From: an uncultured virus (IMG/VR IMGVR_UViG_3300042308_000967) | Taxonomy: Duplodnaviria; Heunggongvirae; Uroviricota; Caudoviricetes | Reading direction: 5' to 3' (one strand) | Length of the DNA: 64,000 bases | Virus record (IMG/VR): IMGVR_UViG_3300042308_000967 | Location: 1-64,000 of that record | Shown: positions 7,175 through 49,906 of the stretch, piece after piece | How positions within the stretch are numbered: position 1 is the first letter of the stretch | Layout of the letters: the number at the start of each line of letters is the position of its first letter | The notes under the pieces: model-generated | Told to the model about the DNA's origin: nothing | Seen by the model: the letters and a program-made list of their open reading frames with translations, nothing else | The model's database searches: none | Made by a program: the position numbers and the translations under genes

Positions 7175-7182
7175 TATAAATA
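7175..7182 (+). promoter_or_regulatory. T4-type late promoter
   Basis: TATAAATA 25 nt upstream of the endonuclease start. Confidence 0.75.
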
Positions 7183-7207
7183 TTATTAGATTTATTTTAG
7201 TTTAATA

Positions 7208-7702
7208 ATGTATTACTGCTATGCTTATTTGCGTGAAGATGGAACTCCATATTATATTGGAAAAGGAAGAGGGCAAAGAGCCTATTTAAAACATCCTCGC
7301 GCAAATGGATTAGATTTGCGTCCGAAAGATAAAAATAGAATAGTTATTCTTAAAGAATTTGAAGATGAGATTTCTGCTTATCAGTATGAAATGGAAATGA
7401 TAGAAAAATATGGACGCAAATGTGATGGAACTGGCATATTGAGAAATATGACTATTGGTGGTGAAGGAAATAAGTCTATTTTTAAAACTTATGAGCAAAG
7501 AAAACAAGCAGAAATTGAAAGAAAACGTAAATGGTATTATGATAATCAGGAACGTTTAAGGCAAAAAGCAGCAAAAATACTTGATGAAAACCGTGATGAA
7601 ATTAATCGCAAACGCAGGGAACGACGCAACACAGAACCATATCGTTCAGAATATCTTGCTCGGCAACGTGAGAGGAGAAATAAGAAAAGTGGTTCCATTT
7701 GA
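7208..7702 (+). CDS. GIY-YIG family homing endonuclease (free-standing)
   Basis: YYCYAY..PYYIGKG..R, conserved E, LRNMTIGGEG, basic C-terminal tail. Confidence 0.85.
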   Translation: MYYCYAYLREDGTPYYIGKGRGQRAYLKHPRANGLDLRPKDKNRIVILKEFEDEISAYQYEMEMIEKYGRKCDGTGILRNMTIGGEGNKSIFKTYEQRKQAEIERKRKWYYDNQERLRQKAAKILDENRDEINRKRRERRNTEPYRSEYLARQRERRNKKSGSI

Positions 7703-13543: not shown

Positions 13544-14263
13544 ATGCCTTTACCAAAGATCTCTACGCCAACACATGAGTTGGAACTACCTTCTACTGGG
13601 CAAACGATTCAGTATCGCCCTTTTCTTGTGCGAGAAGAAAAACTTCTTGTATTAGCACTTGAAAGTGAGAATACCAAAGAAATTACAACAGCAATTAAGA
13701 ACGTTATTAAGAATTGTATTCAAACAAAAGGAGTAAAGGTAGAATCGCTACCTACTTTTGATATTGAGTATCTTTTCCTTAATATTCGCGGTAAATCTGT
13801 TGGAGAAGAGATTGAAGTTAATATTGTTTGTCCAGATGATGGAGAAACTTATGTTCCAGTGAAGATTGATATTGATGAAATTAAAGTGCAAAAAAATGAA
13901 GAGCATACAACTAAAATTCAAGTAGATCAATCTATCGTGATGGAAATGAAGTATCCGTCATTGGATCAATTCATTAAAAATAACTTTGATTTTAATGAAA
14001 ACAATTCAATGGATCAGTCATTTGATCTAGTTGCTTCTTGTGTAGACAAGATTTATAATGAAGAAGAAGTCTGGTCTGCTGCTGATGTAACAAAGAAAGA
14101 ACTGATTGAGTTTTTGGATCAAATGAACTCATCTCAATTCAAACAGATTGAAAAGTTCTTTGAAACAATGCCAAAACTTTCTCATACTGTTAAAGTCAAG
14201 AATCCAAATACTGAAGTTGAAAGTGAAGTTGTGTTGGAGGGTTTGTCCAGTTTTTTCGCATAG
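13544..14263 (+). CDS. gp26: baseplate hub subunit gp26
   Basis: MPLPKI..YRPFLVREEK, FDIEYLFLNIRGKSVGE, FFETMPKL, LEGLSSFF. Confidence 0.9.
   Translation: MPLPKISTPTHELELPSTGQTIQYRPFLVREEKLLVLALESENTKEITTAIKNVIKNCIQTKGVKVESLPTFDIEYLFLNIRGKSVGEEIEVNIVCPDDGETYVPVKIDIDEIKVQKNEEHTTKIQVDQSIVMEMKYPSLDQFIKNNFDFNENNSMDQSFDLVASCVDKIYNEEEVWSAADVTKKELIEFLDQMNSSQFKQIEKFFETMPKLSHTVKVKNPNTEVESEVVLEGLSSFFA
14236..14257 (+). promoter_or_regulatory. candidate -1 programmed frameshift signal
   Basis: Internal SD GGAGG (14236-40), 10 nt spacer, slippery T-TTT-TTC (14251-57). The -1 frame runs into gp51. Confidence 0.65.
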
Positions 14264-14451: not shown

Positions 14452-15111
14452 TTAATTAATTTGAATTCTATTTGCAGGATCAATTCCTCTTTTTTTCTGG
14501 TATCTTGTTAATGGTCCCGCAGTGCTTATGAAATTACTTATGGTGCATTTATATTTTTTGCTATTTGTTATATTTGCACCTTTTATTCCGTCTTCTCTCA
14601 TTTGTTCTTTTGTTCTATCAAAATATCCAATTTTTAGATCTTTTACTTTATAACCACCACTTCTTCCATCTAATATTTTTTGGTTTTTATTTCTAGCAAA
14701 AATTCCTTTTTTTAATTTTTTTACTTTTTCTCCGGATTTTTTTCTTGCTTTTTGTTTTTCTTCTTCAGTTATTCCGTATATTCCTTTTTTTAAATTTAGA
14801 CTATTAAATCCATTCTTTCTTTTTGTATCTAGTGAAAAATTTCCACCGCATCCTTCATTCAAACACCAAGGATCATTAAGAACTGGTTTTATCAATCTAT
14901 CCTCTACCTTTCTACATTTTTCATAACCCTCATCAGAGTAATCAAATATCTCTAATATCTGTTTCTTTGGAGTATAAAGTTCCCAACCCCATTTGTTTGT
15001 TTTAGGTGAACCCCAGTACTCTTGATTATAATATTTTTCTTTTTTACTTCCATAGTAATAATACGGAACTTCTTCAAAGGTAATCTTATACGTATAGATA
15101 CATGGTTTCAT
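14452..15111 (-). CDS. GIY-YIG (Seg-like) homing endonuclease
   Basis: IYTYKITF..YYYYGSK, YWGSP, conserved E, CLNEGCGG, repeated basic C-terminal motifs. Confidence 0.8.
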   Translation of the reverse strand: MKPCIYTYKITFEEVPYYYYGSKKEKYYNQEYWGSPKTNKWGWELYTPKKQILEIFDYSDEGYEKCRKVEDRLIKPVLNDPWCLNEGCGGNFSLDTKRKNGFNSLNLKKGIYGITEEEKQKARKKSGEKVKKLKKGIFARNKNQKILDGRSGGYKVKDLKIGYFDRTKEQMREDGIKGANITNSKKYKCTISNFISTAGPLTRYQKKRGIDPANRIQIN

Positions 15112-15205
15112 AATTCTACTCTAGATGTCTGCATTTATATTTATAAAATAGAGGGAATTTCACCCTCTTCCTGAAGTTTGCAGACATCCAGGTATCGTTA
15201 TTTAT
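15109..15205 (-). ncRNA. structured leader / candidate antisense sRNA module of the endonuclease
   Basis: Minus strand order: ATAAATA, stem CCUGGA/UUCAGG, terminator AGAGGG/CCCUCU plus U-tract, TATAAATA, UGCAGACAUC (complement of the first loop), ATG. Confidence 0.55.
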
Positions 15206-15220
15206 GCTGTTGATAAATAT

Positions 15221-15268
15221 AATTATCTAGAAGAAGAAAAAGAAAAGCAGCAACAAAATGGGACCTGA
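15221..15268 (+). pseudogene. orphaned original 3' end of gp51 (NYLEEEKEKQQQNGT*)
   Basis: Recoded duplicate of NYLEEEKAKQQQQ* at 14395-14436, overlapping the next gene start. Confidence 0.7.
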
Positions 15269-29891: not shown

Positions 29892-31166
29892 ATGGGTATT
29901 CAAATAAACGGAACTACCGATACTATTTCTGCAACTGATGGTGGTTTGGTTGTTTCTGGACAACAACTGACTGGAGTAACCAATCTTCAGATTAGTGGTA
30001 TTACTACAGTTGGTGCTGGATCAACTAGTGCTCCATCAATAACTCCAACAGGAGACAGTAATACCGGAATATTCTTTCCTACTGCTGATACCATTGCATT
30101 TGTTGAAGGTGGCGTAGAGTCCGCAAGGTTTGATAGTAATGGTAGATTTGGCTTGGGAACTTCTGCGCCTAGCGCAACCTTGGATGTTGTCGCCCCTGCT
30201 GGACCTGGTGCCACAAACTTCCGATTTGCTGCTCCAGACAACCACATTCTTAGCTTGCAACGCATTGCTCCTGCTGCAAGCCCAGGTAATTTAAATTTCC
30301 AAGTGTCTACGTTTGGCGCTGGAAATATCAATGCCGATAACACTCTGACACTTCAATCTGGCACTAATACTTCGATTGTTTTTAATACCTCTGGAGCAAA
30401 CGAACGCGCCCGCCTCGACAGCTCCGGCAGATTGTTGGTTGGCGCATCTTCGAGTCGTGCTGTTTCAGACTCTTCAGGAAACGGTCCTCAAGGGCACATA
30501 CAAATCGAATCTGCAAATAGTGGCGCACTAATAAGCATCATCTCGGCTGGCACGGCTGATGCTTTCCGCGCTGGAACTTTAAGTCTCGGACGACACAGAA
30601 ACTCCACAGTAGGCGGCACACCAACAGTAGTTCAAAGCGGAGATACTTTGGGCGCTATTTGCTTTGCGGGCGGAGATGGAACCGACATGCTCGCAAATGG
30701 CGCGTCTATTGTTTGCCAGGTAGACGGCACCCCCGGCGCTGACGACATGCCGGGCAGGCTTGTTTTTTCTACGACGGCCGACGGAGCAAGTCTTCCTACA
30801 GAGCGGATGAGAATCGCTCAAAATGGTGTTATTACTATTCAAAATGGTGCTGTTGCTGTTATTGGTACATTGACTGATGGCGCAACAATTACACCAGATT
30901 TTGCTGCAGATTGTAATTTCACCGTTACGTTGGGTGGATCACGTACAATTGCTAATCCAACCAACATTACCGCCGGACAAAGTGGTAGTATTTTTATTGT
31001 CCAAGATGGAACAGGAAGTCGAACGTTGTCTTGGGGTAGTTCCTGGGATTTCCCTGGCGGCACTGCACCAACCTTAACGACAACTGCTAATGCTGTAGAT
31101 CGTGTCGATTATGTTGTTCGCACCTCTACTTCTATCCATACCGTTTTTACTGCAAACTACTCATGA
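29892..31166 (+). CDS. tail fibre-like protein
   Basis: GSTSAPSI..GDSNTGIFFP, ERARLDSSGRLLVG, PTERMRI modules. C-terminal NFTVTL..QDGTGSRTL..APTLTT domain. Confidence 0.75.
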   Translation: MGIQINGTTDTISATDGGLVVSGQQLTGVTNLQISGITTVGAGSTSAPSITPTGDSNTGIFFPTADTIAFVEGGVESARFDSNGRFGLGTSAPSATLDVVAPAGPGATNFRFAAPDNHILSLQRIAPAASPGNLNFQVSTFGAGNINADNTLTLQSGTNTSIVFNTSGANERARLDSSGRLLVGASSSRAVSDSSGNGPQGHIQIESANSGALISIISAGTADAFRAGTLSLGRHRNSTVGGTPTVVQSGDTLGAICFAGGDGTDMLANGASIVCQVDGTPGADDMPGRLVFSTTADGASLPTERMRIAQNGVITIQNGAVAVIGTLTDGATITPDFAADCNFTVTLGGSRTIANPTNITAGQSGSIFIVQDGTGSRTLSWGSSWDFPGGTAPTLTTTANAVDRVDYVVRTSTSIHTVFTANYS

Positions 31167-33553
31167 GTATCTTTCATAACAACAGTCTTATTGGATCCAG
31201 TGGTCAAGGTGGATATACTATTTCTAGAAGCCTGCGGTTCAACTCAGCCGACTCGGCTTTTCTCAGCCGCACCCCCGCATCAGCCGGCAACCGCAAGACG
31301 TGGACCTGGGCGGGGTGGATGAAGCGGTCCAGCTTTGCCACCTTTCAGATGATTTTCCAGGCTGGAAACGTAAACGCCAGCGAAATATTCCTGTATTTTA
31401 TTGATGGCACTCTGCGTCTTTATCAGGACACCTCAAGCAGCGTCAATTTCAGCGTTGCGACCACAGGCGATCTGAGAGATCCTTCCGCGTGGTATCACTT
31501 TGTTATTGCAGTTGACACAACGCAAGCGACCTCCACGAACAGGGTCAAGCTCTACGTGAATGGCGTTGATCGGACGAACACTGCCGACACGTTCCCCTCA
31601 CTGAACCTGGACACCTACATCAACTCCACGCAGCAGCATTTCATTGGGACTCGCGTCGCCCAGATTCAGTACCTCGGTGCTTACCTTGCCGACATACACT
31701 TCATCGACGGCCAAGCGCTAACCCCCACCAGCTTCGGTGAGTTCTCCGCCACCACCGGCGTGTGGGTGCCGAAGGCGTATACCGGCACCTATGGCACCAA
31801 TGGGTTCCGCCTGACCTTCGCGGACAACTCCGCAGCCACGGCCACCACGCTGGGCAAGGATGCCGCTGGCAGCAACAACTGGACGCCGAACAACCTATCC
31901 GTCACCGCTGGTGCAGGCAACGACAGCCTCGTAGACGTTCCCGTCAACGGCAGCGAGGTTGATACTGGACTCGGGGCGCAGGTGCGGGGGAATTACTGCA
32001 CGTTGAATCCCTTGGACAGAGGGACGGCCGGGGCCGTAGGTATTGTTTTATCCAACGGAAATCTTAACGCTGTTACTCCTTCTGATGCAATTACGAGTGT
32101 ACGTGGAACAATAGGTGTTTCATCCGGCAAGTGGTATTGGGAAGTAACACCAACTGTTGATGGAAGCACGGCGATGATTGGAGTTGGACTGATTTCTGCC
32201 AACTTGAATAGCTATGCAGGCGTAAACGCAAGTTCTTGGGGGTATTACGCCGATGGTAATAAGTACTTTCAAAACATTAGTTCATCCTACGGATCTGCTT
32301 ATGGTAATGGCGACGTAATTGGCGTCGCGCTAGATGTGGATTCTGGAGCTCTGACATTCTATAAGAATGGAGTTAGTCAAGGGCAGGCTTTTACTGGGCT
32401 TAGTGGAACTTTATTCCCAATGCTAGGCGATGGTGGTACAATTGCTGCAGTTGCATTAACCGCCAACTTCGGCCAACGCCCATTCGCCTACACCGCCCCC
32501 AGCGGCTTCAAGGCGCTCTGCACGGCAAACCTGCCCGCACCGACGATTACACAGCCATCCACGGTGATGGATGTGAAGCTCTGGACGGGGAATGGCAGCA
32601 CGCAGACTATTTCGGGATTGGGGTTTAGCCCGGACTTTGTGTGGCTAAAGGGGAGAAGTGTACCCTATCCACATGGCCTGCATGATACCGTTCGCGGAGT
32701 AAACAGATTCCTAATCTCATCAACAACAGATGCCGAGATAGTCAACGAGCAAGATGGCTTTATATCTGCGTTTACTTCAGATGGTTTTACGATCTCTCCG
32801 GGAAGCAGGTCTTCTGCCACTTTTAATCAGAACAGCGCTACCTATGCAGGCTGGTGCTGGGACGCCGGCAGCTCCACCGTCACGAACACACAAGGCTCCA
32901 TCTCTAGTCAGGTGAGGGCTAATGCAAGTGCGGGGTTCTCTATTGTTAAATGGAACGGAACCAGTGCGAACGCCACTATAGGTCACGGACTTGGGATCGC
33001 TCCGCAGTTGATTATTCGTAAATATACAAATGATACTGACGACTGGTACACCTACCATGTAAGCGCCGGCACCAATAAATACTTCAGCCTCAACCGAACC
33101 ACGGAAGCGCTAACAAGCACGAGTATTTGGCAGAATACAGCTCCGACATCCTCCATTTTCTATATCGGTGGCGGCAATAACAATAGCAATTCGATTGCTT
33201 ACTGCTTCGCCCCAGTAGCCGGGTACAGCGCGTTCGGCAGCTACACCGGCAACGGCAGCACGGATGGTCCGTTTGTTTATACAGGGTTTAGGCCGAGGTG
33301 GGTGATGATTAAACGCTCAGATAACGTAGGAAGTTGGGGCATTCTTGATACTGCTAGAAATACTTTTAACGTTCAAGATAAATTACTCTGGTCAAACCTG
33401 TCAGACGCTGAAGGCACATTCACTATTTTTGATGTTCTTTCCAATGGTTTCAAGCTCAGGGAATCAACTAACGGATACAACACGTCTGGTGGCACCTACA
33501 TCTACGCCGCCTTCGCAGAGTCGCCGTTTGGCCTCAACAACCGCGCCCGCTAG
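31163..33553 (+). CDS. ConA/LamG- and SPRY-like domain tail-associated protein
   Basis: SLRFN..KTWTWAGW..WYHFV (LamG-like) and SSGKWYWEV..GDVIGVALD..FYKNG..NFGQRPF (SPRY-like). GC-rich. Confidence 0.75.
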   Translation: MSIFHNNSLIGSSGQGGYTISRSLRFNSADSAFLSRTPASAGNRKTWTWAGWMKRSSFATFQMIFQAGNVNASEIFLYFIDGTLRLYQDTSSSVNFSVATTGDLRDPSAWYHFVIAVDTTQATSTNRVKLYVNGVDRTNTADTFPSLNLDTYINSTQQHFIGTRVAQIQYLGAYLADIHFIDGQALTPTSFGEFSATTGVWVPKAYTGTYGTNGFRLTFADNSAATATTLGKDAAGSNNWTPNNLSVTAGAGNDSLVDVPVNGSEVDTGLGAQVRGNYCTLNPLDRGTAGAVGIVLSNGNLNAVTPSDAITSVRGTIGVSSGKWYWEVTPTVDGSTAMIGVGLISANLNSYAGVNASSWGYYADGNKYFQNISSSYGSAYGNGDVIGVALDVDSGALTFYKNGVSQGQAFTGLSGTLFPMLGDGGTIAAVALTANFGQRPFAYTAPSGFKALCTANLPAPTITQPSTVMDVKLWTGNGSTQTISGLGFSPDFVWLKGRSVPYPHGLHDTVRGVNRFLISSTTDAEIVNEQDGFISAFTSDGFTISPGSRSSATFNQNSATYAGWCWDAGSSTVTNTQGSISSQVRANASAGFSIVKWNGTSANATIGHGLGIAPQLIIRKYTNDTDDWYTYHVSAGTNKYFSLNRTTEALTSTSIWQNTAPTSSIFYIGGGNNNSNSIAYCFAPVAGYSAFGSYTGNGSTDGPFVYTGFRPRWVMIKRSDNVGSWGILDTARNTFNVQDKLLWSNLSDAEGTFTIFDVLSNGFKLRESTNGYNTSGGTYIYAAFAESPFGLNNRAR

Positions 33554-33624
33554 TGCTCGTTAACCCGTCCTCGTAGTGAGCAACAATATAATGTTATCAT
33601 AAATACTCATAAAACTATAAATCA

Positions 33625-34116
33625 ATGTTTATATTAGAAGGAAAACCATTAGCATTGGATACTCCATTTACGACTTCAGATGGAACGCAATATCCAGCAA
33701 ATTGGTTAAGGTTATCTTCACTCGAAGAAAAAGAAGCAATTGGTATCACAGAACAAGCAGATTCTCCAGTTTGGGACCAAAGATATTATTGGGGATATGA
33801 TGCTGATGGTAATCTAATTCCCAAGCAACTTGAAGATGAAGTAGTGACGCCAGAAGGTGGAGAACCATATACTCAAACGGGACTTAAGACACTTCATATT
33901 CAGCAGACAAAAGAAACAGCAAATAAACTTCTTTTACCAACTGATTGGTATATTGTAAGAAAATTTGAAAGAAATATTAATATTCCTACTGATGTTGCAG
34001 AGTATCGTGCAGAAGTAATTGCAGTTTCAGAACAAAGAGAAACTTTAATTTCTTCAGTAACAGCAGTACAAGATTTGGAAAATTTAATTCTTCCCGATTG
34101 GCCACGATTTAATTGA
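33625..34116 (+). CDS. tail-fibre assembly chaperone-like protein
   Basis: YPANWL, LLLPTDWYIVR..YRAEV..WP C-terminus. Follows a fibre gene. Confidence 0.6.
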   Translation: MFILEGKPLALDTPFTTSDGTQYPANWLRLSSLEEKEAIGITEQADSPVWDQRYYWGYDADGNLIPKQLEDEVVTPEGGEPYTQTGLKTLHIQQTKETANKLLLPTDWYIVRKFERNINIPTDVAEYRAEVIAVSEQRETLISSVTAVQDLENLILPDWPRFN

Positions 34117-34146: not shown

Positions 34147-34347
34147 ATGACTGAACAACAAGAACATTTATCACAAGTCATTGAGCAACAAAAACAAGTC
34201 ATCAATGACATCAACAATTTGAATACTCAACTAAATGTAAAAAAAGAACTCCTATATAAACTTCAAGGAGTGATTGAATACCTAGAACAAGTAGGAGTTT
34301 CTCTTCCTCAAGAAGAAACTCCAGAAGAAGAAACAGAAGAATCATAA
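34147..34347 (+). CDS. small coiled-coil protein (paralogue of 50281..50511)
   Basis: MTEQQEHL..KLQGVIEYLEQ.GV.LP. TATAAATA upstream. Confidence 0.75.
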   Translation: MTEQQEHLSQVIEQQKQVINDINNLNTQLNVKKELLYKLQGVIEYLEQVGVSLPQEETPEEETEES

Positions 34348-34457
34348 ATAGTTGCACCTTAATTGACTCGCAATCTATAAGGTAAGAAAGGAAGCAGAAA
34401 TGCTTCCTTTTCTGCTATAATACTAAATAATGATGCGAGTCAATTTAAGTTTCAATG
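34344..34457 (+). ncRNA. structured leader / candidate antisense sRNA module of the HNH endonuclease
   Basis: Order: ATAAATA, stem ACCTTA/TAAGGT, terminator AAAGGAAGCA-GAAA-TGCTTCCTTT, CTAAATA, TGCGAGTCAATT (complement of the first loop), ATG. Confidence 0.6.
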
Positions 34458-35432
34458 AACTATCTAAAAATTTATTGTAACCTCATAAGAAAGCTGAAAA
34501 AAAGAGGTTATACTAAAAAGAAAGCAAAAGAACTTGGAGTGTATGTAGAAGGACATCATACATTTCCTGTGAGCATCTTTGGTAAAAATAAAGGAATTGT
34601 TTATTTGACAGCAAGAGAGCATTATATTGCTCATGCACTTTTGGAAAAAATTTGTATGCAAAGATATGGGTTGATTCATTGGAAAACTAAAAAGATGACA
34701 AATGCTCATATTATTATGGGTGGTAGAGGTAAATATTGCAATTCTTATCTTTATGAAGAATCTAGAAAAAGATATAGTAGAGATAGGTCTGGTGTTCCTA
34801 TGAAAGAATCTAGTAAAATTAAGTTAAGAAATTATAGACTTGGAGCAAAACAATCTGTGGAATCTATAGAGAGAAGAAGACAAAAAAATATCGGCAAAAA
34901 AAGGACGGAAGATCAAAAATCAAGAATGTCTAAAGCGCAGAAAGGACTGAAGAAGTGTTTATTGAAAGTTGAAGAATTAGAATTTAAAAATAAATTTATT
35001 GATACAGTAGAAACTTCAAAAACCAAAAAAGAAATTATAGTTAAATTGGGAATGAACCCAAACAATGGAAGTTCTTTTGAGTCTATTGATAAGTGGTGTA
35101 ACTTTTTGAATTTAGATACAACTCACTTAATTGGTGCTGGTATTAATAAAGATAAAAAACACACCGAAGAAACCAGAGAAAGAATGGTAATTTCGAGAAG
35201 GGGTAAATTAAAAAGTGAAGAACATAAAAAGAGTATAAAATTATCAAATTGCAAATACGTTTATACATTTACTTCTCCACAAGGAATTATATTAGAAACA
35301 GTATTGTATACTGATTTTTGTGAGGAAAATGATTTGAATAAATGTAAAATAAGAGAAGTTGCAAGAGGTGTCAGAACTCATCATAAAGGTTGGAGAGTTA
35401 CGAGAAGACTAATAACTAAAGACGATAAATAA
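34455..35432 (+). CDS. HNH homing endonuclease with NUMOD3-type repeats
   Basis: MNYLKIY, EGHHTFP..IVYLTAREHYIAHALL, KKRTEDQKSRMSKAQKG and HTEETRERM repeats, HHKGW. Confidence 0.85.
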   Translation: MNYLKIYCNLIRKLKKRGYTKKKAKELGVYVEGHHTFPVSIFGKNKGIVYLTAREHYIAHALLEKICMQRYGLIHWKTKKMTNAHIIMGGRGKYCNSYLYEESRKRYSRDRSGVPMKESSKIKLRNYRLGAKQSVESIERRRQKNIGKKRTEDQKSRMSKAQKGLKKCLLKVEELEFKNKFIDTVETSKTKKEIIVKLGMNPNNGSSFESIDKWCNFLNLDTTHLIGAGINKDKKHTEETRERMVISRRGKLKSEEHKKSIKLSNCKYVYTFTSPQGIILETVLYTDFCEENDLNKCKIREVARGVRTHHKGWRVTRRLITKDDK

Positions 35433-44051: not shown

Positions 44052-44088
44052 CATTCATAAATAGAAAAAAGGTAGGCGCTCTCCTCCC

Positions 44089-46623
44089 ATGGCAGTACAA
44101 AAAAACTTTAGCATACGTAATGGTTTAGAAGTAAATGAAAAATTACTTGTTGCGGACTCTGTACTAGACAGAGTTGGTATTGGATCAACAACTCCAAAGT
44201 ATACTTTTGAAGTCATTGGTGGAATAGGCGCTACCGACATTAATATTCTTGGTATTAGTACAGTACTTACCGAGTTCAATGTGGGAACTGGTGGTACTGT
44301 AATTACTTCACTCAACACTGGACTCACTGGTTTTGGTACACAGTCTCCAGCGTATATTGTTGATATACGATCTCCAGTCTCTACGGGACAGACAGCACTC
44401 TATGTTCAGGGTGATGTCAGAATTACTGGTGATGTATATGCAGATGATATTAATCTCGATCAAGCAACATTTACTAATCTAGAAGTCACTGGCGTTAGTA
44501 CGATTGCGATTGGTATCATTACCACATTAAGTGGTTCTAACCTAAATTACAGTGGTATTGGATCTTTCGGAAGTGTTAATACTCCAACTGCAAGAATTAC
44601 TACTGGCATTGTTACGACGATTGATAATGCTAATTTAAGAGTATCCGGAATTGCAAGTATCAATACTGGTGTTGTAACGACTGCTTATATCAACACTGGT
44701 ATTGTAACTAATTTAAGTGGAACAAATCTTAATTATACTGGTGTTACTACTGTTGGTGATTTTTCATCAACAGGTTCTTTTGATTCTTATGCACCAACTT
44801 CAACATTCCACGGAAATGTAACCATTGACGGAAACGTTACAGTTGGTGGAACTTCAGGCATAATCAATGCTGTAGAATTAAGAATTGAAGACAAAGACCT
44901 TGTTCTTGGATTTACGACTACAATAACACCAACTGATGATACTGCAAATCACGGTGGTATTGCAATTGCATCAACAGAAGGAACTCCATTAGTTTCTTTA
45001 TATGCAGCAGGTATTAATACATTACCTGACACCTACAAGCAAATTATGTGGGTTAAGCGCAATACAATGGGCGCTGGAACCACTGATGCATTCTTATTTA
45101 ACTATGGTGTTGGTATTGGTTCAACACAAGTTCCTAATGGTGTTAAACTTTCTGTTGGATCAGTACATATTACTGATGATACTATCAATGCAACAAATGC
45201 AGTATTAACCAATTTAAATGCATCTGGTGTTACTACATCTAATTCTTATAATATTGGTGCAACTCAAGTTATTAGTTCTGGTAGACAACTTCAGAACATT
45301 GCTTCTCTTGATGCAACCACAACTGCAACGATTGAAGCAGCAATTGCGAATGCACCAAACACATTTACTGATATAACAGTCAGTGGTCTTTCAACATTTG
45401 TAGGTGTTTCGACATTTAACAGTGGTGTTTATGTTTCTGGTATTGCTACTTTCCAGAATAATGTAAGTCTTGCTGATAATGCAAATCTATACATTGGTAC
45501 TGGAAATGATTTAAGAATTTTCCATAATGGATCCAATAGTTTTATCCAAGATAATGGAACTGGAAATCTTTTCATTGACGCATCTAGTACTTATTATAGA
45601 GCATCTTCACATTTAATTCAGAATGCCAGTTCATCAGAAACTCTTGCAACCTTTACTGAAAACGGTTCAGTAGCACTTTACTTTGATAATGTAAAGGAAT
45701 TTGAAACCACAGGATATGGCGCAACTGTCTTTGGAACTTTACAAACACAGCAACTAAATGTTTCTGGTGTTTCTACAATAAGCACTACAAATATTAGCGG
45801 AGACTTAACATTTACTGGTAATAATGATCTTTACTTAAAAGATAGTGGGGTTATTAATTTTGGAGATAGTAATGATCTACAAATTTACCACAATGGTGTA
45901 TTAAGTGTAATTAGAGAAGGTGGAACCGGCGGATTATTAATTGATTCTAATAATGAAATTAAACTTGGTAAGAATGGAGCAGGAAATGATACTCTTGCGA
46001 TATTTACACCTGATGGTTCAGTAGAACTCTATTATGACAACGTAAAGGAATTTGAAACCACAGGATATGGTGCTACTGTTTATGGAACTTTACAAACACA
46101 GCAACTAAATGTTTCTGGTCTATCAACGGTTGCAAACTTTAGAATCACACCAATTGGTTCTGGCGCAACAGTTGGTAACTCTGGTATTGTTACTTACTAT
46201 GGTGATGGTTCTCAACTCTCTAATATCATTTCTGGTGTTGGAATTCAATCTGCAGGAACTTTAGTTGGTACTGGATTTACCACACTCAACTTCATTGGCG
46301 CAGGTAATACCTTTGCTGTCAATGGAACTACTATTGATATTAGTATTTCTGGTGGAGCAGGTGCTGGTGGTACTTGGACAACATATAATGCAGGTATTGC
46401 AACCAGTAAGTCTGTTGGTGTTCATACTTCAACGATTGATAATGCAAATCTCACTGGTGTTGGCAATTCATTCCAAGGACTTTATGTTGCTAATGGTATG
46501 ATTATCGTTGATAATCAACTCAATGGAGACCATTACATTGGTACTTCATATAATGGACTGATGGCAGGTCCTGTCACCATTAATGGAATATTGACTGTTG
46601 ATGGTAATTACGTAGTAGTCTAA
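44089..46623 (+). CDS. tail fibre-like protein
   Basis: KNFSIRNGLEV, VGIGSTTP, GIxT repeats, two copies of NDLxIxHNG..VxLYxDN.KEFETTG. Confidence 0.75.
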   Translation: MAVQKNFSIRNGLEVNEKLLVADSVLDRVGIGSTTPKYTFEVIGGIGATDINILGISTVLTEFNVGTGGTVITSLNTGLTGFGTQSPAYIVDIRSPVSTGQTALYVQGDVRITGDVYADDINLDQATFTNLEVTGVSTIAIGIITTLSGSNLNYSGIGSFGSVNTPTARITTGIVTTIDNANLRVSGIASINTGVVTTAYINTGIVTNLSGTNLNYTGVTTVGDFSSTGSFDSYAPTSTFHGNVTIDGNVTVGGTSGIINAVELRIEDKDLVLGFTTTITPTDDTANHGGIAIASTEGTPLVSLYAAGINTLPDTYKQIMWVKRNTMGAGTTDAFLFNYGVGIGSTQVPNGVKLSVGSVHITDDTINATNAVLTNLNASGVTTSNSYNIGATQVISSGRQLQNIASLDATTTATIEAAIANAPNTFTDITVSGLSTFVGVSTFNSGVYVSGIATFQNNVSLADNANLYIGTGNDLRIFHNGSNSFIQDNGTGNLFIDASSTYYRASSHLIQNASSSETLATFTENGSVALYFDNVKEFETTGYGATVFGTLQTQQLNVSGVSTISTTNISGDLTFTGNNDLYLKDSGVINFGDSNDLQIYHNGVLSVIREGGTGGLLIDSNNEIKLGKNGAGNDTLAIFTPDGSVELYYDNVKEFETTGYGATVYGTLQTQQLNVSGLSTVANFRITPIGSGATVGNSGIVTYYGDGSQLSNIISGVGIQSAGTLVGTGFTTLNFIGAGNTFAVNGTTIDISISGGAGAGGTWTTYNAGIATSKSVGVHTSTIDNANLTGVGNSFQGLYVANGMIIVDNQLNGDHYIGTSYNGLMAGPVTINGILTVDGNYVVV
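45691..46119 (+). repeat. 78-bp near-identical direct repeat (45691-45768 and 46042-46119)
   Basis: GTAAAGGAATTTGAAACCACAGGATATGG...TGGAACTTTACAAACACAGCAACTAAATGTTTCTGGT, copies 351 bp apart. Confidence 0.9.
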
Positions 46624-49039: not shown

Positions 49040-49906
49040 ATGGCAAAAACATTGAAGAAACTGTGGAAGGAGTTTGTTAATGAAAGGAAAGTTTCTTTAT
49101 TTCCTACATCATTAACATCAGATTACAGTCAGGTTACTAAATGGATTTCTAGGTGTCCAATACAAGACATCAAAAAATCAAAAGAAATAATGAATTGGAT
49201 TTTGAGTGAGCAACCTGTTCTTTCTTCTAGACGAGTTGCAATGTACGTCAAATCTATGTATCGGTGGGCATCTGAAGAAGAAAATGGATATTTTAAAAGG
49301 AATCCATTACAAAATTTTAGAATGCCAAAGGCACCTCAAACTGATGAAGAAATTATAGTAATACCAAGAGATGAGATTGATATTGTAATTCAAGAATTAA
49401 GAAAGAAAAGAACCTATAAAAGTGTAAATTGGTCTTGGTATACAGAGTTCATGCTTCAAACTGCAATGAGAACAGGTGAAGTTCGTGCTTTAATGCGGAA
49501 AGATATTAAGGAAGATAAAATTCTTGTTCATCAAAATTACACACTTACTCATGGTCTTAAAAATAGCACCAAAACAAACAAAAAACGTTGGGTTCCATTA
49601 AATAAAAAATGTCTTGATATTTTGAATAACTTACCAAATCAAAATGAATTTATTTTTCCTTGGGATAGAATTGCATTTCAAAGTTACTTCAGAAAAAAAC
49701 TAAAACCTCTGTATGATAATAAAGTTATTAGTCATTTATATAGACCTTATGATTGTCGTCACACAGCAATTAGTCATTGGATAGAATCTGGAATTCCTAT
49801 TCCACAAGTAGCTAATTGGGCAGGAAATACTAGTGAAATTATTTTTAAACATTATTGCAATGTAACTCAAGATTATCAGATTCCTGAAATTAAGTATTCT
49901 AAATAA
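49040..49906 (+). CDS. tyrosine recombinase (integrase family, no obvious arm-binding domain)
   Basis: TAMRTGE (R), TKT (K), PYDCRHT (xxR), VANWAGN, KHY (Y). Core-binding domain ending ..RNP. Confidence 0.88.
   Translation: MAKTLKKLWKEFVNERKVSLFPTSLTSDYSQVTKWISRCPIQDIKKSKEIMNWILSEQPVLSSRRVAMYVKSMYRWASEEENGYFKRNPLQNFRMPKAPQTDEEIIVIPRDEIDIVIQELRKKRTYKSVNWSWYTEFMLQTAMRTGEVRALMRKDIKEDKILVHQNYTLTHGLKNSTKTNKKRWVPLNKKCLDILNNLPNQNEFIFPWDRIAFQSYFRKKLKPLYDNKVISHLYRPYDCRHTAISHWIESGIPIPQVANWAGNTSEIIFKHYCNVTQDYQIPEIKYSK

Follow-up and report, generated by a model that had tools for sequence, protein, structure and literature searches.

The window, by which is meant the whole stretch of 64,000 nucleotides analysed here, comes from a 72.7-kb contig of a T4-like phage that carries gp32, gp59 and baseplate and tail genes. 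Its minus strand contains a free-standing gene at 14452-15111, the nearest named carriers of which are, in protein searches, the freshwater Synechococcus phages S-SRM01, B3 and B23 (Kyanoviridae). The product is probably a Seg-type GIY-YIG homing endonuclease. This label is given because its neighbours in the ESM Atlas are GIY-YIG/SegE proteins (score 0.95, TM 0.74-0.84) and because Tyr, Gly, Glu and Asn columns are conserved. Sequence searches of Pfam, PHROGs and the PDB gave no match for the protein itself, and one relative matches phrog_314 (E 0.002). Structure prediction from the single sequence reached a pLDDT of 33, with the N-domain still under 50-60 when 14 sequences were supplied, and Foldseek with this low-confidence model found no fold match. 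Comparison of the nuclease families by hhalign, on shallow alignments, gave no match either. Elsewhere in the window, a TTTTTTC run is present at the end of gp26 (14250-14260, plus strand), with the gp51 frame open from upstream; a tyrosine integrase/recombinase gene occupies 49040-49906 (plus strand) within this T4-like contig; and the region 30000-34000, which includes two tail-type genes (SPRY/DUF7483), has a GC content of 47-52% compared to about 35% elsewhere.

The nuclease gene is preceded by a compact cassette (Table 1) in the order late promoter (P1), stem-loop and terminator of about 52 nt, second late promoter (P2), complementary leader and ATG. All elements claimed for it in the preliminary description were recovered base for base on the minus strand. 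The first stem is formed by CCTGGA (15192-15187) and TTCAGG (15175-15170), which enclose the loop TGTCTGCAAAC. The 13-nt anti-leader arm CTGGATGTCTGCA (15191-15179, minus strand) extends with its 3' end into this open loop, and pairs with the target over 13 bp, including one G-U. The terminator-like hairpin consists of AGAGGG (15168-15163) and CCCTCT (15155-15150) followed by ATTTT, so that its U run comprises only four U. The ribosome-site signal of the gene is weak, with only an SD-like GAG. A single weak sigma-70-like site on the minus strand (15451-15424) could feed read-through into the gene, and such sites are rarer here than in shuffled sequence (5 vs 12.9).

Table 1. Features of the window and of related loci; transcription starts are predicted.
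Feature	Position	Strand	Basis or remark
Free-standing nuclease gene, 219 aa	14452-15111	-	reversed between gp51 and the next baseplate-region gene
Conserved purine-rich stretch, from duplex to ATG	15112-15120	-	sequence; ATG at 15111
Target TGCAGACATCTAG, -1 base plus first 12 nt of the nuclease mRNA	15121-15133	-	complementary to the arm
Proximal late promoter P2, TATAAATA	15138-15145	-	sequence; predicted +1 = G15132
Terminator-like hairpin and short U run	15145-15168	-	terminator scan; predicted 3' end of a ~50-nt RNA
5' stem-loop of the predicted small RNA	15170-15193	-	fold
Distal late promoter P1, CATAAATA box (ATAAATA 15205-15199)	15199-15206	-	predicted +1 = A15193
Divergent late-promoter box	15213-15219	+	sequence; similar box upstream of P1 in all six filled alleles
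Second cassette, other specificity class	34344-34457	+	sequence, fold
Second cassette, P1	34344-34350	+	+1 at 34356; arm to 34372
Second cassette, terminator	34386-34412	+	
Second cassette, P2	34423-34429	+	
Second cassette, target	34434-34449	+	ATG at 34455
HNH-type homing endonuclease (phrog_655)	34455-35432	+	profile match
7208 nuclease leader: single late promoter and 13-bp AU-rich hairpin over the ATG	7175-7211	+	fold
Second scaffold	L270-L391 (viral contigs); W01 near 77631; G006 near 88425; G003 near 147181; L394 (Sf-CH5)		

The nuclease gene is optional at its site. Among 13 gp51 junctions, six are empty with the flanking genes abutting, six hold a reversed nuclease gene and one, truncated, is uninformative; the site is thus empty in six related genomes and filled in six. 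The filled junctions contain two nuclease families and three cassette classes, and each retains a full cassette: P1, stem-loop and complementarity are kept in all six, and no co-directional gene lies upstream of them. The junction is an insertion hot spot shared by two or more nuclease families. With these insertions comes a late promoter, placed back to back, for the native gene that they displace (the window, L001, L054, L067, L081 and L263); in the window, judged from its sequence and position, the divergent box probably serves the displaced downstream gene at 15258.

A second cassette precedes the HNH gene on the plus strand. The shared architecture noted in the preliminary description holds, as the layout is identical and both modules start with ACCT and close with AGG. 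Relatives of this HNH gene adjoin nrdA or endonuclease II in T4-like phages. Its stop codon overlaps an ATAAATA box (35425-35431, plus strand), which likely drives the next tail-fibre gene, as it appears to do in relatives without the HNH nuclease. The endonuclease at 7208 had been described as lacking the cassette, and none is present. Most of the 5' arm of the hairpin found there lies upstream of the predicted late start, and by its sequence the 7208 leader is a classical T4-type mask. Such one-promoter masks, including that of gene 7208, coexist with cassettes in the same genomes. A further leader motif, AAAAGGTAGGCGCTCTCCTCC, follows a late promoter both before a tail gene of the window (44057-44091, plus strand) and before a GIY-YIG gene of contig G006 (near 39780).

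The arm/leader duplexes of the two window modules have predicted energies of -24.6 and -20.3 kcal/mol, and neither value was reached in 2000 dinucleotide shuffles. The folds of the whole regions have z scores of -5.8 and -6.5, with none of 200 shuffles as stable in either case. In 11 phage genomes or contigs, picked for holding modules and scanned with nuclease profiles built from module-bearing proteins, late-promoter sites in front of nuclease-family genes have a duplex of -17 kcal/mol or better in 50 of 59 cases, and those in front of other genes in 6 of 331; three of these six exceptions are nuclease genes missed by the classifier. Over the 112 promoter pairs of the same set the duplex energies are bimodal with an empty bin from -16 to -14. 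Complementarity of this type is therefore not a common feature of shuffled sequence, a possibility that had been raised against the device when it was proposed.

Comparison of sequences identifies the cassette as a widespread unit of about 100 nt before free-standing homing-endonuclease genes of T4-like cyanophages. Loci with relatives of the window's two nucleases number 8 and 32, and most of them have the same layout with different arm/target pairs. The pattern of proximal promoter and leader alone occurs at no fewer than 121 viral loci, and the two-promoter pattern has a match in 27 of 31 larger records, with up to seven per record. Loci L001-L269 and G000, with a duplex of -15 kcal/mol or better required, yielded 232 physical and 143 distinct modules. 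These contain 69 nine-base cores, 67 of which enter the counts per core after two mis-anchored B3 modules were dropped. The downstream proteins form 13 clusters (136 of 143 modules assigned) and represent at least 12 nuclease families. Cluster representatives match GIY-YIG, HNH, endonuclease VII-like or homing-endonuclease profiles; of three atypical clusters, one is weakly PD-(D/E)XK, one matches only uncharacterised PHROGs and one has no match. None of the 143 distinct modules precedes a recognisable non-nuclease gene. The original proposal, a portable device for RNA control common to two nuclease families, is thus supported and was understated, given these families and 67 co-varying cores.

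Within the 11 module-bearing genomes, 50 of 69 nuclease-like genes have a cassette. Cultured carriers are S-SRM01 with six modules, B3 with three and the marine S-B68 with one, which occupies 44348-44426 on the minus strand of MK016664. Among seven records of marine or coastal phages, the looser type I pattern is matched in one (S-B68) and the stricter pattern in none; the six other named marine or coastal cyanophages, S-PM2 included, do not match the cassette pattern. Searches of 50,697 phage records by blastn with both window modules returned only short chance matches. Cellular genomes gave 20 pattern matches, namely one true module and 19 without an arm. The true one, L419, belongs to a lake bacterial MAG, and its contig of 1.1 kb is probably a phage fragment that was binned wrongly. 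At L403 and L407 the cassette is intact, but the downstream nuclease reading frame stops after 26 codons.

The T4 late box of 8 bp has its first base at -13 and spans -13 to -6 (PMC2988020). Because the T4 box starts at -13, +1 is taken as the sixth base after TAAATA, and the start sites of both promoters are accordingly predictions from T4 geometry. A T followed by a purine is found at the fifth and sixth base after the box in 124 and 137 of 143 modules for P1, and in 138 and 141 of 143 for P2. Of 91 arms from loci picked regardless of P1, 90 have TAAATA at a distance of 18-21 nt to the seed. The first paired base of the leader is -1 or +1 in 141 of the 143 modules and that of the arm +1 to +3 in all of them, so far as can be judged from sequence fixing the ends of the pairing to both predicted start sites. 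In all 67 cores, positions +1 to +5 of the mRNA are paired by Watson-Crick bonds; three or four types of pair occur at +3 to +5, and G-U wobble in the arm/leader duplex occurs only from +6 on. The -1 base is paired in 59 of 67 cores, and Watson-Crick pairing drops to 12 of 67 at -2; a T at -1 is paired in 130 of 143 modules, although it is predicted to lie outside the mRNA. Across cores, G-U/U-G combinations number 44 and A-C/C-A combinations 2, an asymmetry indicating that the sense RNA strand pairs and that the element is not a DNA palindrome. In a covariation test on a 15-sequence alignment, 97.9% of cells are paired and two-sided changes occur at 10 of 13 pairs, while sliding the arms lowers pairing to 31-39%.

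The RNA predicted from P1, folded alone, has the 5' stem in its minimum-energy structure in 141 of 143 modules, and the closing arms of this stem co-vary. The loop bases facing mRNA +1 to +4 are unpaired with a computed probability of 0.88-0.99. The 3' hairpin has an energy of -15.2 +/- 2.2 kcal/mol over the 143 modules, and in 113 of them five or more of the 8 nt after it are T. In 106 of 137 modules the extended arm/leader duplex stops 4-6 nt short of the AUG, a distance that lies within the ribosome footprint. On its own, the leader of the mRNA stays mostly open (0.65-0.77 unpaired), which makes activation by unmasking unlikely. In a continuous transcript, long-range pairing in cis is favoured over local folding by 12.9 +/- 3.1 kcal/mol, and a co-directional ORF precedes no fewer than 67 of the 143 modules. 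This count is a lower bound, since the upstream-context classifier left 37 modules unassigned and 23 were too short.

Specificity was assessed by cross-pairing. The two window modules are predicted to pair with each other's targets at only -4.6 and -4.8 kcal/mol, compared to -19.0 and -22.5 for their own. Over the 143 modules the mean duplex is -22.0 kcal/mol for cognate and -8.1 for different-core combinations, the cognate strength being in part by construction since duplex energy was the selection criterion of the set. For 130 of the 143 RNAs, the cognate target scores better than any target with a different core. The earlier term 'cognate-specific' is thus correct between the two window modules and does not apply at the level of the gene, as specificity follows the sequence class. 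Of the repeated cores, 20 of 32 precede two or more unrelated nuclease families, and the exact core of the 15109-15205 module occurs in front of GIY-YIG genes as well as HNH genes of two kinds, at sites next to tRNAs and at others. One insertion site houses three classes, one class spans many sites and contig G006 holds one class twice as an identical duplicate. Among 155 pairs of proteins that are 80-90% identical at the N-terminus, a common core is found in 12, and differences at three or more of the nine core bases in 130; on these sequences, cores change faster than the nuclease proteins. That the class does not follow the protein shows that the cassette is often swapped or re-keyed. Core matches outside modules are at chance level, with 53 found in 1.49 Mb and 52 +/- 11 expected, and as possible targets elsewhere other late-promoter leaders form only scattered duplexes of -13 to -17. 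Genomes show no avoidance of carrying one class twice, as near-cognate pairs amount to 3 of 210 within genomes, the identical G006 duplicate left out, and 63 of 2240 between genomes.

Among the closest known devices is the T4 mask, which covers the ribosome site in early read-through RNA and from which a nested late promoter frees the gene (PMC2988022, PMC2677866). Similar hairpins precede GOS endonucleases, and motif 1 in Fig. S4 of the same paper is a different, constant motif (PMC2677866). The masks of I-TevI, I-TevII, I-TevIII, segB and Aeh1 mobE resemble the cassette in gene class, in having TATAAATA between the arms and in an arm complementary to the leader. In both, the late promoter between the arms yields a late mRNA without the 5' arm, read-through RNA takes the same fold and the hairpin covers the ribosome-binding region in long transcripts. 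However, the cassette arm has its own late promoter, its own stem-loop and a terminator, it matches the very start of the late mRNA exactly, and there are dozens of interchangeable classes of it. The T4 late transcript escapes its mask, whereas that of the cassette would be caught in trans. Furthermore, the T4 mask gene is part of an early or middle polycistronic unit, which is not so for the gene at 14452-15111 but does hold at many family loci.

In its predicted action the cassette resembles RNA-OUT of IS10, which pairs first through its loop with the 5' tail of RNA-IN and prevents translation (PMC4737173, PMC1994261). Both are stem-loop RNAs of selfish elements whose loop pairs first with an mRNA 5' end, as predicted here for the cassette, and in both orthogonal pairs differ in the loop and 5'-end seed. 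RNA-OUT is an overlapping opposite-strand transcript, whereas arm and target of the cassette are separate copies on the same strand, so that each change of specificity requires two mutations or a swap of the cassette. The cassette also differs in the dozens of its natural classes and in its target, the endonuclease of a lytic phage. C4 of phages P1 and P7 lies upstream of its target on the same strand, pairs through loops and is re-specified by few base changes (PMC5320573). A same-strand upstream copy with co-varying specificity is likewise found in the cassette. C4, however, has three stem-loops and two recognition loops, is cut from a precursor by RNase P and serves temperate-phage immunity, while the cassette has one recognition loop and would control a nuclease of lytic phages. 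Rfam at its gathering threshold reported only a tRNA; up to E 10 both modules gave chance-level matches, with no match to C4. CfrI of S-PM2, about 225 nt long, is a cis-antisense RNA at the end of psbA (PMC12197685, PMC10690425). It is, like the cassette, a non-coding RNA beside a cyanophage homing endonuclease (F-CphI), but it is cis-antisense, and S-PM2 lacks a match to the cassette pattern. A literature search, which took in part of the supplements of PMC10690425, found no description of the cassette, and the candidate RNAs of that paper may include it. The cassette is predicted to work like RNA-OUT and is laid out like C4, yet it lacks a defining feature of each system compared, and it most plausibly descends from the T4 mask.

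The reading we consider probable is that the cassette specifies a separately transcribed antisense RNA acting in trans, combined with masking in cis. P1 would yield an RNA of about 50-60 nt that consists of the 5' stem-loop and the terminator. P2 would yield the nuclease mRNA, which over its first ~16 nt is complementary to the small RNA's own first ~16 nt. The open loop would capture the free 5' end of the mRNA through the seed at +1 to +5, strand exchange would then open the stem of the small RNA and the resulting duplex of 15-17 bp, ending 4-6 nt before the AUG, would block ribosome loading. Transcripts reading through the terminator would form the same duplex in cis and be masked as in T4, and because the read-through transcript folds this same duplex the cassette probably acts in both ways. 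Because two molecules have to meet, repression should become stronger with the accumulation of phage genomes and late transcripts. IS10 is known for multicopy inhibition. A stable small RNA that rises with genome copy number would give a short, capped pulse of nuclease, by which off-target cuts could be limited and homing kept; as both promoters share one temporal class, this benefit is put forward by argument only. For RNA-OUT, repression of a threshold type has been described (PMC1994261).

Four features of the sequence go beyond what a T4 cis mask has: P1 at its fixed distance in 90 of 91 arms, a separate 5' stem that co-varies and is not needed by a cis mask, the strict seed in an open loop and the reverse insertions at the gp51 junction. 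A mask of the T4 type alone is nevertheless the strongest rival, and we regard it as unlikely rather than remote. According to it, the cassette is an elaborated hairpin whose arm pairs with the leader in read-through transcripts only, the terminator insulates the gene, P2 frees translation late and the product of P1 is a by-product. The mechanism is established for I-TevI, I-TevII, I-TevIII, segB and Aeh1 mobE (PMC2988022), and classical one-promoter masks are present in the same genomes. A cis mask would in fact explain the complementarity at most loci, because of the energetic preference for the cis fold and the number of modules behind a co-directional ORF. No orphan small RNA was found in 11 genomes or among 10 true same-class loci, which also fits action in cis, and no orphan target with a partner elsewhere was found. 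In phage MC09 (L396, 260-297), a reversed nuclease has a late promoter and a target-like leader without an upstream arm; this leader has no complement elsewhere in that genome, and the locus is perhaps a cassette that lost its RNA. In addition, a second scaffold precedes the same nuclease families, with a single stem, a constant internal loop (GGGCAGCAA ... TTGCGTAAGTCCC) and the anti-leader in the loop. Of its distinct copies, 73 of 75 pair with their own leader and only 14 of 75 have TAAATA upstream, so that anti-leader arms can exist without P1, in agreement with a mask in cis. However, masking in cis leaves unexplained the fixed-distance P1, the conservation of a 5' stem that competes with the mask, the strict seed and the retention of the whole cassette in six reverse-oriented insertions, and possible feeders of read-through are scarce, with one weak sigma-70-like site upstream of the gene on the minus strand.

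The remaining rivals concern the site of action. That the RNA acts on transcription or decay instead of ribosome loading, by pairing with the non-template strand or nascent RNA at the open P2 complex or by marking the mRNA 5' end for cleavage or protection, seems improbable. The frequent pairing of the -1 base, a complement of exactly -1 to +16 and the cleavage of the RNA-IN/OUT duplex by RNase III (PMC4737173) agree with such a route, but in three of the four correctly anchored modules with A at -1 the RNA shows no compensating change, and the duplex is just 15-17 bp long, bulged and adjoins the AUG. Very improbable is the role of guide or cofactor that the preliminary description raised as an alternative for the short RNA, and in which it would name a DNA target. 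A variable segment of 11-15 nt within a constant scaffold beside a nuclease gene is what such a guide would look like; identical cores, however, precede unrelated GIY-YIG and HNH proteins, matches outside modules stay at chance, and neither sites nor classes correspond one to one. The suggestion found no support. In systems of the IscB, TnpB or HEARO type, the guide corresponds to target DNA at or close to the vacant insertion site, and a scaffold goes with a single protein family; neither property was found for the cassette, and assignment to this type was rejected. A feature at the level of DNA, that is, paired operators for autorepression by the nuclease or an inverted repeat or cruciform, is given as little credence. 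I-TevI does bind an operator over its own late promoter (PMC2988022) and the target adjoins P2, but the core is independent of the nuclease family, the wobble is strand-asymmetric and the RNA stems co-vary. Both guide and operator are disfavoured because the core class is independent of the protein and has no matches beyond chance.

Within the favoured reading of an antisense RNA acting in trans, the cassettes could be RNA 'incompatibility groups' among the selfish nucleases of lytic phages, an idea that we hold to be doubtful. A resident small RNA would silence an endonuclease of the same class in its own genome or in that of a co-infecting phage, and nucleases would escape by swapping or mutating both arms. 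If true, this would explain the dozens of fast-turning classes and the moves between unrelated nuclease families.

The cassette is testable in culture, as S-B68 (host Synechococcus WH7803) carries one and S-SRM01 (host KCZYC6) six. The set also provides, as a library supplied by nature, about 60 compact pairs of RNA and leader that are largely orthogonal. Should the RNA be real, lytic phages of the T4-like group own a family of trans-acting regulatory small RNAs on most of their selfish nucleases, as counted in the 11 module-bearing genomes, and the cassette would show how a T4 cis mask can become an IS10-like antisense RNA through the gain of a promoter and a terminator, with both forms present in one genome. 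This is relevant to the tolerance of phages for as many as nine homing endonucleases and to the question whether these elements compete during co-infection.
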